Below are positions 37,868 to 38,855 of a stretch of DNA of 64,000 bases, one piece after another; the stretch's first letter is position 1; every line of letters begins with the position of its first letter. This DNA comes from a virus, in IMG/VR virus record IMGVR_UViG_3300049783_001607, one strand, 5' to 3'. The notes beneath the pieces are model-generated. The model had not been told where the DNA came from. It saw only the letters and a list, made by a program, of their open reading frames with translations, and did not search any database. Made by a program: the position numbers and the translations under genes.

Positions 37868-38416
37868 AACCCTCTTTCTTATTACCAGGGAACTATAAGG
37901 CACCTGCTATAAATAGTTTACTGCTTATATTCGTAATAAGAGTAGGGTTATGTAGTTAATGATACTTTAGCAAGGTCGGATGCATAACTGCCATTACCTG
38001 CTTTTCTTAGTCCGGTCCATAGAATCAATGGAATTTATAACTACTTATTGAGAATTCATTTGTGTTGTAGCCGTCATAATACACTAGGCTCACTAAGATT
38101 TCCTTCTCAAAGGAACAACACAAGAAAATATTACTATTTTCATCCAATTTTTAAAGAGGTTTTCGATGTTCAGTCCTCTATTTACTAGGATTACTCCATT
38201 AATTTTTAGGTCTAACCTATTACAGCGATTTCCATCAAAGCTTACGCTCAAGTTTTCTGCTTAATATCCTGTCAATTTAGGATTAGTATATTTATGTGTA
38301 TAATAAAAGGTACGGTTTCAAACCTCAGTTATAGTTTCATCTACTTATAGTTAAATAAGTGACCATTTGGTGCCTTCTTTTTATTATTATTCACAAAGGA
38401 TCAATGTTTAGCCTTT
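37868..38416 (-). ncRNA. candidate large structured ncRNA, family A+B, copy 1
   Basis: ORF-free; colinear conserved blocks shared with 38424-38855; paired stems; strand inferred from neighbouring genes. Confidence 0.6.
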
Positions 38417-38423
38417 TATTAGC

Positions 38424-38855
38424 ACCCTCTTTCTTATTAGCAGTGTTTCAAATTACGCACTTTAAATGGTTTCGAGCCATTCACTAATAAGAGTAGGGTC
38501 GCGTAGTTATTTGATGTGTTTAACTTATCAATGTTGATACTTTCACATAACTACTTGCTGAGAAACTATCCTTATCATTACTTTACAGATAGTTCAAGTC
38601 CTCACGGATACTCGCTCATTTGTGTTGTAGTAGCTTATATTCTACTCTATTTATTATACAACTTTCTCAAGGTTGCAACACATCCAGGATCACTCCATCT
38701 ACAGCCTCTTCTTACGTCAATTACTTGATGTCTAGCGTCTTGATCAGTATCCTGTCAATTCAGGATTAGTATCTTTATGTGAATGTTCACCAACCATAAA
38801 ACTAACGTTTAGTGGCAAATTACTTATATTCACAAAGCATCAATGTTTAGGCTTT
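38424..38855 (-). ncRNA. candidate large structured ncRNA, family A+B, copy 2
   Basis: As copy 1, with different inserts between conserved blocks. Confidence 0.6.

Follow-up and report, generated by a model that had tools for sequence, protein, structure and literature searches.

Evidence that a tandem pair of structured noncoding RNAs on an IMG/VR phage sequence belongs to a widespread phage RNA family absent from Rfam

The window analysed here is a 64,000-nt stretch of DNA from IMG/VR record IMGVR_UViG_3300049783_001607, to which all window coordinates refer. It is an AT-rich phage sequence (~27% G+C) with essentially all genes on the minus strand, including recognisable genes for an rIIA-like protein, thymidylate synthase, an ATP-dependent ligase and an exonuclease or phosphoesterase; no cultured phage close to the window was found, the best protein identities being ~37%. 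Between the open reading frames (ORFs) at 37446-37835 and 39226-39969 lies a 1.39-kb gap that contains no credible ORF, and the lower 1 kb of this gap (37864-38855) is filled by two abutting head-to-tail copies of one structured noncoding RNA on the minus strand. The refined minus-strand limits are 38855 to 38419 for unit A (437 nt) and 38416 to 37864 for unit B (553 nt), with a spacer of 2-3 nt. An earlier, sequence-only reading had placed two head-to-tail units with colinear blocks in a noncoding region here; the stretch between the ORF ending at 37835 and the one starting at 39226 is indeed ORF-poor, and the pairing of units is borne out by direct-repeat families and by covariance-model matches. 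Eight colinear blocks with 79-100% identity are common to the units, and the direct repeats joining them measure 44 nt (86%, 38258/38741), 36 nt (86%, 38381/38820) and 15 nt (100%, 38056/38616), with further repeats of 26 nt (88%), 25 nt (88%), 18 nt (89%), 19 nt (79%) and 13 nt (92%). When both units were compared, the inserts between blocks proved unrelated and the stem below the TTCTCAA loop differed yet paired (TTCC/GGAA versus CAAC/GTTG), both as first read.

To place these units in a family, two covariance models were built from other phages' copies with the window excluded, R1 from 44 sequences for the 5' half and R2 from 46 sequences for the 3' half. On the 64-kb window R1 scored 78.9 bits (E 1.4e-18) and 57.8 bits (E 3.8e-13), and R2 scored 77.2 bits (E 8e-21) and 73.1 bits (E 1.5e-19), in every case on the minus strand and at the units only. 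The unit A matches lie at 38614-38855 (R1, 78.9 bits) and 38419-38564 (R2, 77.2 bits), and those of unit B at 38047-38214 (R1, 57.8 bits), 38350-38414 (R1, 18.6 bits) and 37864-38068 (R2, 73.1 bits). Membership of both units in a new family is thus indicated by significant matches of both half-models to both units, with no further match in the 64 kb. The core architecture is complete in each unit: the Pa loop UAAACAUUGA, the GNRA hairpin, Pd/Pe, UUGAGAA/UUCUCA, P1 (ACCCU.../...AGGGU) and the tail.

Each copy folds as Pa, Pb, Pc, a Pd/Pe/Pd2 three-way junction, an optional P2 and a terminal P1 followed by a short tail. From the 5' end, Pa carries a near-invariant 12-nt loop (UAAACAUUGA) and Pb encloses a variable hairpin, followed by the joining strand AUAAAGAUA. 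The middle of the fold consists of Pc, a GNRA hairpin that is a three-branch domain in expanded members, and of Pd with Pe (loop CUUGAGAAAG) and the variable Pd2. The 3' part comprises the strand CAACACAAAUGAG-UUCUCAGC, P2, which is missing from some compact members, P1 with a conserved internal loop, and the tail GCUAA.

Comparative evidence for these helices is extensive. Across 100 sources R1 and R2 found 101 and 95 matches, respectively. Of the helix cells in the R1 alignment 95.4% are paired, and double-sided changes (329 cells) affect 26 of the 27 pairs, with a covariation score of 0.382 versus 0.04-0.07 when partners were slid by 1-3 columns; in the R2 alignment 94.0% of cells are paired and 17 of 19 pairs show double changes, with a score of 0.213 versus 0.03-0.06. 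Compensatory changes are therefore present in 43 of the 46 pairs of both models together. Alignments fitted to a model are biased toward pairing, a bias addressed by the slid-partner controls, which pair in 35-54% of cells; none of 500 shuffles attained the observed values. A mutual-information scan gave the same helices as its top signals; beyond them it returned lineage effects and no additional long-range or tertiary pairing. When plain MAFFT alignments were given to RNAalifold, part of the structure was recovered, in agreement with the helices; because only part was found, the helices were set by hand and re-tested on the model-fitted alignments. The conserved RNA fold postulated by the sequence-only reading is thus upheld by ~100 relatives with 94-95% of helix cells paired, and by the compensatory changes in both alignments.

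The pseudoknot postulated in the same reading fared less evenly. The Pe loop (UUGAGAA) and the downstream strand (UUCUCAG/A) present 6-7 complementary bases that are conserved in ~90% of members, and from this complementarity they probably pair as a pseudoknot. Apart from a few mismatches, variation is confined to G.U, with 6 cases at one pair and 1 at a second; no compensatory change was seen, and the pairing therefore stays probable. Most relatives were collected by a motif that contains the pseudoknot 3' strand, which biases this test against seeing variation. In unit B seven Watson-Crick pairs are possible because the last G of the strand is A there. Two further structural candidates were rejected. 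A helix closing the RNA by pairing its 5' end with its 3' tail does not suit a tail that is invariant and a 5' end that varies, and inspection spoke against the P1 internal loop being a K-turn or an 11-nt receptor.

The elements of the two units map to the window as follows.

38419-38855, minus strand: unit A, whole RNA, expanded subtype, 3' tail GCUAA, 5' end at 38855 (R1 and R2 matches, block map).
38834-38855, minus strand: unit A Pa, 5' hairpin AAAGC/GCUUU with near-invariant loop CUAAACAUUGAU (4/4 pairs with double changes).
38779-38833, minus strand: unit A Pb, GUGAAU/AUUCAC around a variable hairpin (6/6 pairs with double changes, e.g., A-U 52, G-C 17).
38684-38769, minus strand: unit A Pc domain, base stem CUA/UGG and variable part (R1 helices, loop census).
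38749-38766, minus strand: hairpin AUCCUG-AAUUGA-CAGGAU within the unit A Pc domain.
38687-38696, minus strand: GNRA hairpin GGA-GUGA-UCC within the unit A Pc domain.
38621-38682, minus strand: unit A Pd three-way junction, UGUGUUG/CAACACA enclosing Pe and Pd2 (R1 helices).
38659-38675, minus strand: unit A Pe, CAAC-CUUGAGAAA-GUUG, whose loop is the 5' strand of the probable pseudoknot (R1 helices, pseudoknot counts).
38630-38645, minus strand: unit A Pd2, variable hairpin within the Pd junction.
38558-38620, minus strand: unit A joining strand AAUGAG, optional two-hairpin insert and pseudoknot 3' strand (block map).
38598-38609 and 38566-38592, minus strand: unit A insert hairpins, the GNRA hairpin AUCC-GUGA-GGAC and a second hairpin (same insert in loci L004, L008 and L029 of other phages).
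38558-38564, minus strand: unit A pseudoknot 3' strand UUCUCAG (block map).
38503-38554, minus strand: unit A P2, GUAGUUAU/AUAACUAC with variable loop (7/7 pairs with double changes).
38419-38499, minus strand: unit A P1, ACCCU-A-CU-CUUAUUAG / CUAAUAAG-AA-AG-AGGGU with conserved internal loop, then the GCUAA tail (R2 helices).
37864-38416, minus strand: unit B, whole RNA, expanded subtype, 3' tail UAUAA, 5' end at 38416 (R1 and R2 matches, block map).
38395-38416, minus strand: unit B Pa, AAAGG/CCUUU with loop CUAAACAUUGAU (R1 match, block map).
38296-38394, minus strand: unit B Pb, extended helix GUGAAUAAUAA/UUAUUAUACAC around a large variable insert (R1 match, block map).
38124-38286, minus strand: unit B Pc domain, CUA/UAG base (R1 match, block map).
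38266-38283, minus strand: hairpin AUCCUA-AAUUGA-CAGGAU within the unit B Pc domain.
38188-38197, minus strand: GNRA hairpin GGA-GUAA-UCC within the unit B Pc domain.
38155-38179 and 38124-38141, minus strand: extra hairpin and second GUAA hairpin, respectively, within the unit B Pc domain.
38048-38122, minus strand: unit B Pd, UGUGUUG/CAACACA, with Pe, Pd2, joining strand AAUGAA and pseudoknot 3' strand (R1, block map).
38100-38115, minus strand: unit B Pe, UUCC-UUUGAGAA-GGAA, within the Pd region.
38069-38090, minus strand: unit B Pd2, within the Pd region.
38048-38054, minus strand: unit B pseudoknot 3' strand UUCUCAA, with 7 Watson-Crick pairs to the loop possible (block map).
37952-38044, minus strand: unit B P2, GUAGUUA/UAACUAC with a long variable insert (R2 match, block map).
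37864-37948, minus strand: unit B P1, ACCCUACUCUUAUUAC / GGUAAUAAGAAAGAGGGU, then the UAUAA tail (R2 match, block map).

The G/C swap in Pa (AAAGC/GCUUU in unit A, AAAGG/CCUUU in unit B) is compensatory, and in unit A, as in L004, L008 and L029, a two-hairpin insert separates AAAUGAG from UUCUCAG. Over the model columns the units are 49% identical in the 5' half and 69% in the 3' half, and each is nearer to copies from other phages (up to 72% / 86% identity, with an imperfect 5'-half alignment for unit B), indicating that they are old divergent paralogues and not the product of a recent duplication. Unit A is distinguished by the insert ahead of the pseudoknot strand and by its GCUAA tail, unit B by an additional GUAA hairpin, by larger inserts in Pb and P2, and by a UAUAA tail as in L012 and L030. 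The two copies may act as two subtypes or jointly. Pairs of unlike copies occur in L009, L025, L031 and L042 too; those of L009 abut, and the spacer is 1-3 nt in L009 and the window.

Two local features were observed at the helices themselves. The 3' strand of P1 (38424-38436 and 37869-37881, minus strand) contains a near-invariant purine run, AAGAAAGAGGGUG, opposite the partner strand ACCCUACUCUU; the run looks similar to a Shine-Dalgarno-like sequence complementary to the 3' end of 16S rRNA, and the partner strand to an anti-Shine-Dalgarno sequence, a likeness that may be coincidence. In addition, a 29-nt inverted repeat at 38845-38919 (76% complementary) would allow sequence just upstream of unit A to pair with the Pa 5' strand and loop (GUUUAGGCUU.../...AAAGCCUAAAC in the RNA sense). 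The resulting hairpin would either compete with Pa or serve the upstream gene as its terminator.

The RNA is read from the minus strand, as are the genes on either side of it. In that sense the modelled pairs include 123 G.U/U.G combinations versus 21 A.C/C.A, and at one pair position U.G is the commonest (27), alternating with G-C (22) and A-U (15). The Pc loops read GUAA (58), GUGA (5), GAGA (3), GAAA (3) and GGAA (1), giving a GNRA loop in 70 of ~96 rows; on the opposite strand they would read as an unremarkable TTAC. Where the fetched loci hold transfer RNA (tRNA) genes, these share the orientation of the RNA in 38 loci and oppose it in 2, and all recurring neighbour ORF families are on its strand. 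The G.U excess, the GNRA loops and the co-orientation with genes and tRNAs therefore assign the RNA to the minus strand, and the plus strand, on which the sequence-only reading had written it, is to be discarded. The same features bear on the idea that the element acts as DNA, be it an origin of replication, a site of recombination or packaging, or what is left of a mobile element. Such an element would suit the scatter among unrelated phage types at varying positions, the occasional duplication and the HNH homing endonuclease nearby in 3 loci. However, the strand-asymmetric G.U pairs, the GNRA tetraloops and the double substitutions that preserve helices in 43 of 46 pairs point to selection on a folded transcript, and neither terminal inverted repeats, nor target duplications, nor a constant nuclease or transposase gene was found; we consider a DNA-level role very improbable.

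The family extends well beyond the window. Exact-motif scans found the block CCTGTCAATTNAGGATTAGTAT in 28 IMG/VR contigs and GCTGAGAACTCATTTG in at least 120, and 2 contigs of metagenome-assembled genomes were found as well, one of which (100 kb, as large as phi14:2) is probably a mis-binned phage. The contigs carrying the family span 12-373 kb and come from unrelated phage types, including the crAss-like phi14:2 and large phages with rIIA, thymidylate synthase and ligase genes, with the RNA at varying genomic positions. Nearly all are phage contigs from environmental metagenomes, joined by one phage of Cellulophaga (Bacteroidota). Members are usually compact, at 210-310 nt (L098:2287-2535 is one); at 437 and 553 nt, the window units fall into an expanded minority with an extra hairpin domain. 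The initial description as a conserved large RNA therefore holds, with the correction that the RNA is not private to this phage but belongs to a wide family of which the window copies are expanded and divergent members. Cellulophaga phage phi14:2 (Crassvirales) carries one copy, which was found by blastn with the expanded window copy only; a compact member had no blastn match among 50,697 phage records. The phi14:2 copy occupies about 2910-3359 of KC821624, on the plus strand of that record. At 2934-3259 (locus coordinates) the GenBank entry of phi14:2 (L001, KC821624) lists three hypothetical ORFs, gp007-gp009, of 34-39 amino acids (aa) on the opposite strand, which RefSeq NC_021806 has dropped, and gp006, a member of protein family phrog_15656, ends 5 nt ahead of the RNA 5' end.

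Comparison with Rfam 15 (4227 families) gave no match over the RNA units when the whole window was scanned at the gathering threshold. With E relaxed to 10, the region 37700-39350 yielded five sub-threshold chance matches to small nucleolar RNA models and SAM-II (14.6-20.4 bits versus cut-offs of 42-70), and at E up to 0.1 nothing was found over the RNA in six other loci (L032, L035, L041, L063, L088 and L098), in which tRNAs, transfer-messenger RNA (tmRNA), GOLLD and DUF805b were detected. The RNA had been read as lying outside group I and II introns, RNase P, 6S, signal recognition particle RNA and riboswitches, and no Rfam match on the RNA was found for any of these, for tmRNA or for catalogued ribozymes. 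The GOLLD model (gathering score 150 bits) had no match on 37700-39350 at E up to 10 and scored 292 bits on L088:5021-5439 in the scan of the six loci. Since Rfam 15, ROOL and GOLLD included, gives no credible match, the RNA is neither GOLLD nor ROOL. No description was found in literature on phage, crAss, ornate and tRNA-island RNAs or by full-text search with signature strings. Together with the covariation and the spread among phages, this strongly supports a widespread phage RNA family absent from the Rfam catalogue.

A divergent member of a described family that Rfam missed, whether ROOL, GOLLD or an unnamed candidate in a 2023 screen, would account for a context like that of ROOL and GOLLD, namely phages, tRNA islands, lengths of hundreds of nt and pseudoknots (PMC12286853), and that IMG/VR-wide screen (PMC10690425) could well have caught so common an element. 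Against it stand the null results with the GOLLD and ROOL models (E up to 10 on the window region, up to 0.1 at the six loci), the 292 bits scored by the true GOLLD of L088, the lack of any block in common with the GOLLD consensus, and the absence of a relevant paper among the full-text hits to signature strings. This makes membership in a described family quite unlikely.

Same-strand tRNA genes are present in 38 of 84 loci, and several adjoin the RNA; the nearest tRNA to the window units is 24 kb off. The 3' ends of tRNAs or tRNA-like elements lie 0-4 nt before Pa in L026, L035, L054, L088, L100, L111, L127 and L130, and the 5' ends of tRNAs or tmRNA lie 3-45 nt past the GCUAA tail in L032, L035, L053, L062 and L137. 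For example, the RNA of the 98-kb contig L088 (IMGVR_UViG_3300046787_000353), at 1419-1711, follows a tRNA at a distance of 2 nt. It is part of a co-oriented array with 22 or more tRNA genes, to which GOLLD (5021-5439, 292 bits) and tmRNA (8855-9260, 80 bits) also belong, all within 10 kb. Other flanks are tRNA-like. A conserved ~47-nt element, AUAGCUAAGCUGUGUAAAGCGUCAGAACUUAUAAUCUGUUAGAAGCU, abuts the RNA 5' end in L023, L061, L062, L066, L079, L090 and L106; it resembles a tRNA devoid of its T arm, in that a closing stem is combined with a D-arm-like hairpin and with an anticodon-like loop (CUUAUAA), and is possibly a processing handle. In L035, L053, L054, L111 and L137 the RNA sits between ...GGTTCGAATCC-tgt-CCTGAC-ta and (G)TCAGGTGG..., flanks that consist of tRNA-like units, mostly uncalled by ARAGORN, with one common acceptor stem; the RNA thus has complementary hexamers on its two sides, in the manner of cargo carried in the spacer of a tRNA-scaffold array. 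T-arm-like hairpins were not enriched in the variable inserts (6 observed versus 3.2 +/- 1.9 in shuffles).

This setting also invites the idea of a ribozyme, whose core of pseudoknot, GNRA loop and joining strands would catalyse self-cleavage at unit boundaries or a reaction on tRNAs. Self-cleavage would free tandem units that have no tRNA spacers, and the near-invariance of joining strands and loops across very different phages, the sharp boundaries (1-3 nt between tandem units, 0-4 nt to tRNAs) and the tRNA-island setting are all in its favour. Yet no Rfam ribozyme family matched at E up to 10, no sequence feature marks a cleavage site, and flanking tRNAs already account for end formation, leaving a ribozyme unlikely.

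No protein partner is constant: no family occurs beyond 17 of 82 loci. That number belongs to the commonest neighbour, the ~240-aa phrog_15656 (39226-39969 and 40152-40925 in the window, gp006 in phi14:2), which lies at variable distance, has no Pfam or PDB-sequence match, and has an AlphaFold model that is unusable (pLDDT, its predicted confidence score, 44.9). Other neighbours are mutually unrelated (SPFH, QueC, MoxR, phosphoesterase, HNH nuclease). Signals for autonomous transcription were likewise not found. In the 60 nt ahead of the RNA the Bacteroidota-type promoter motif TAnnTTTG is present at 2 of 82 loci versus a background of 3.9%, no fixed -10 box or promoter motif at fixed distance was seen upstream of the RNA in the 82 loci, and no terminator was found after it.

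The explanation that we favour, with somewhat better than even confidence, is that the copies are genes of stand-alone, processed RNAs of a non-Rfam family. With neither promoter nor terminator of its own, the RNA would be transcribed within a longer early-region transcript. Ends of RNAs flanked by tRNAs are formed by RNase P and RNase Z, and here host nucleases of the tRNA type may release the RNA, RNase P at the following tRNA and RNase Z or E after the preceding one, with cleavage at AU-rich sites perhaps freeing it where no tRNA flanks. By analogy with what is proposed for GOLLD and ROOL, the released RNA might work in trans, folded into a compact particle, either by itself or together with a partner, and would not be a regulator of the next gene; of these steps, this action in trans is the one we hold with low certainty.

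Several observations weigh against this explanation. The pseudoknot shows no compensatory change among the aligned relatives. When unit A was folded as a single sequence, the plus strand came out ahead (z -4.56 versus -2.06), although such folding is weaker than the comparative strand evidence and was given less weight. The tie to GOLLD and ROOL is one of context, the RNA being known here from its sequence. Finally, among 79 loci, 27 have a same-strand ORF that starts no more than 60 nt past the RNA 3' end and 41 have one within 150 nt; the ATG of the next gene in the window (37835) is 28 nt downstream of unit B. This layout would also suit a 5' leader. Such a cis-acting leader would control the downstream message by processive antitermination, transcript stabilisation, or sensing of a ligand or tRNA. 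It would agree with the lack of a terminator between the RNA and the next gene and with the tendency of the RNA to head a coding run, as seen in the frequency of near ORFs downstream and their rarity upstream, where an ORF ends within 150 nt in 15 of 82 loci. Nevertheless, the downstream genes are unrelated among loci, elsewhere a tRNA or tmRNA follows the RNA or the RNA lies inside a tRNA array, and a tandem pair of leaders makes little sense. Moreover, at 210-550 nt with invariant loops the RNA is far above the size of known antitermination or leader elements such as put and EAR. A leader role thus has a minor, though not negligible, probability.

A bolder version of stand-alone, trans-acting RNA genes, to which we give a similarly small chance, is that the family is a third independent class of large phage tRNA-island RNA beside GOLLD and ROOL and works as an RNA-only machine. 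It might be a self-assembling particle, in which the two divergent tandem paralogues perhaps join as a hetero-assembly, or it might be a ribozyme or decoy aimed at host tRNA or the translation apparatus during infection, with the invariant loops UAAACAUUGA and UUGAGAAAG and the purine-rich P1 strand as putative contact surfaces.

Few classes of large, elaborate RNA without a known role have been described, and the discovery of a new one has tended to lead to new biology. The present family is strongly conserved across unrelated phage types, on at least 120 phage contigs, and in at least one phage it shares a contig with tRNAs, tmRNA and GOLLD. The window shows that one phage can hold two old divergent copies back to back and that the RNA core tolerates large modular insertions. 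Phage phi14:2 of Cellulophaga baltica is a cultured, tractable system that carries the RNA, mis-annotated as three tiny wrong-strand ORFs, and its role is directly testable there.

Other features of the window lie around the pair. Two phrog_12005 genes (37084-37835, minus strand) adjoin it on the 3' side, two phrog_15656 genes lie within 39226-40925 (minus strand), and a further expanded paralogue family comprises eight consecutive ~162-aa ORFs (43282-47412, minus strand). The remainder of the gap upstream of unit A in the RNA sense (38862-39225) contains short blocks repeated elsewhere in the window: 38955-38986 resembles 39990-40021 and 42459-42493, 39050-39097 resembles 42573-42620, and 39191-39225 resembles 40120-40149 and 42682-42715. 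The same blocks are present in L001, L007, L012, L025, L030, L064, L094 and L102, and perhaps represent additional small RNAs, or signals that follow each phrog_15656 paralogue. Near 39005-39025 (minus strand) the gap also contains a T-arm-like hairpin, GUCGG-UUCGAAA-CCGAA. In addition, the DUF805b RNA motif exceeds its Rfam gathering score at 6959-6994 of the window (minus strand, 40.2 bits) and at 3505-3539 of L041 (minus strand, 44 bits).

Among known systems, the 10,006 candidate structured RNAs (csRNAs) of viruses reported from IMG/VR in 2023 share with this RNA their source and the use of covariation in intergenic regions as evidence; in the text of that paper no motif with the features of this RNA is described (PMC10690425). 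Resemblance to cargo RNAs matured by way of tRNAs is seen in several loci, where the RNA begins 0-4 nt after a tRNA 3' end and a tRNA or tmRNA lies 3-45 nt beyond. In contrast to such cargo, most copies, the two of the window included, have no flanking tRNA, and tRNA-guided processing therefore cannot be the general maturation route. GOLLD and ROOL, the latter presumably Rfam accession RF03087, are the nearest in kind to this RNA, which is like them in setting and complexity; they were recently shown by cryo-electron microscopy to build homo-oligomeric, RNA-only cages. ROOL occurs in phages and prophages, often near tRNA islands, and is several hundred nt long with multiple pseudoknots and no known protein partner (PMC12286853). 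It is like the present RNA in its phage setting, tRNA proximity and length of several hundred nt, and unlike it in its conserved blocks; its Rfam model did not match the window region (E up to 10) or the six loci. GOLLD (RF02032) is a large pseudoknotted phage noncoding RNA of unknown function, often near tRNA islands (PMC12286853). It has no sequence or structure homology with this RNA, its consensus having no common block, and at >800 nt it is larger than the typical 210-310 nt of this family and the 437-553 nt found here. Nevertheless, both are phage-encoded, large, multi-helix RNAs in which variable peripheral inserts surround a conserved core.

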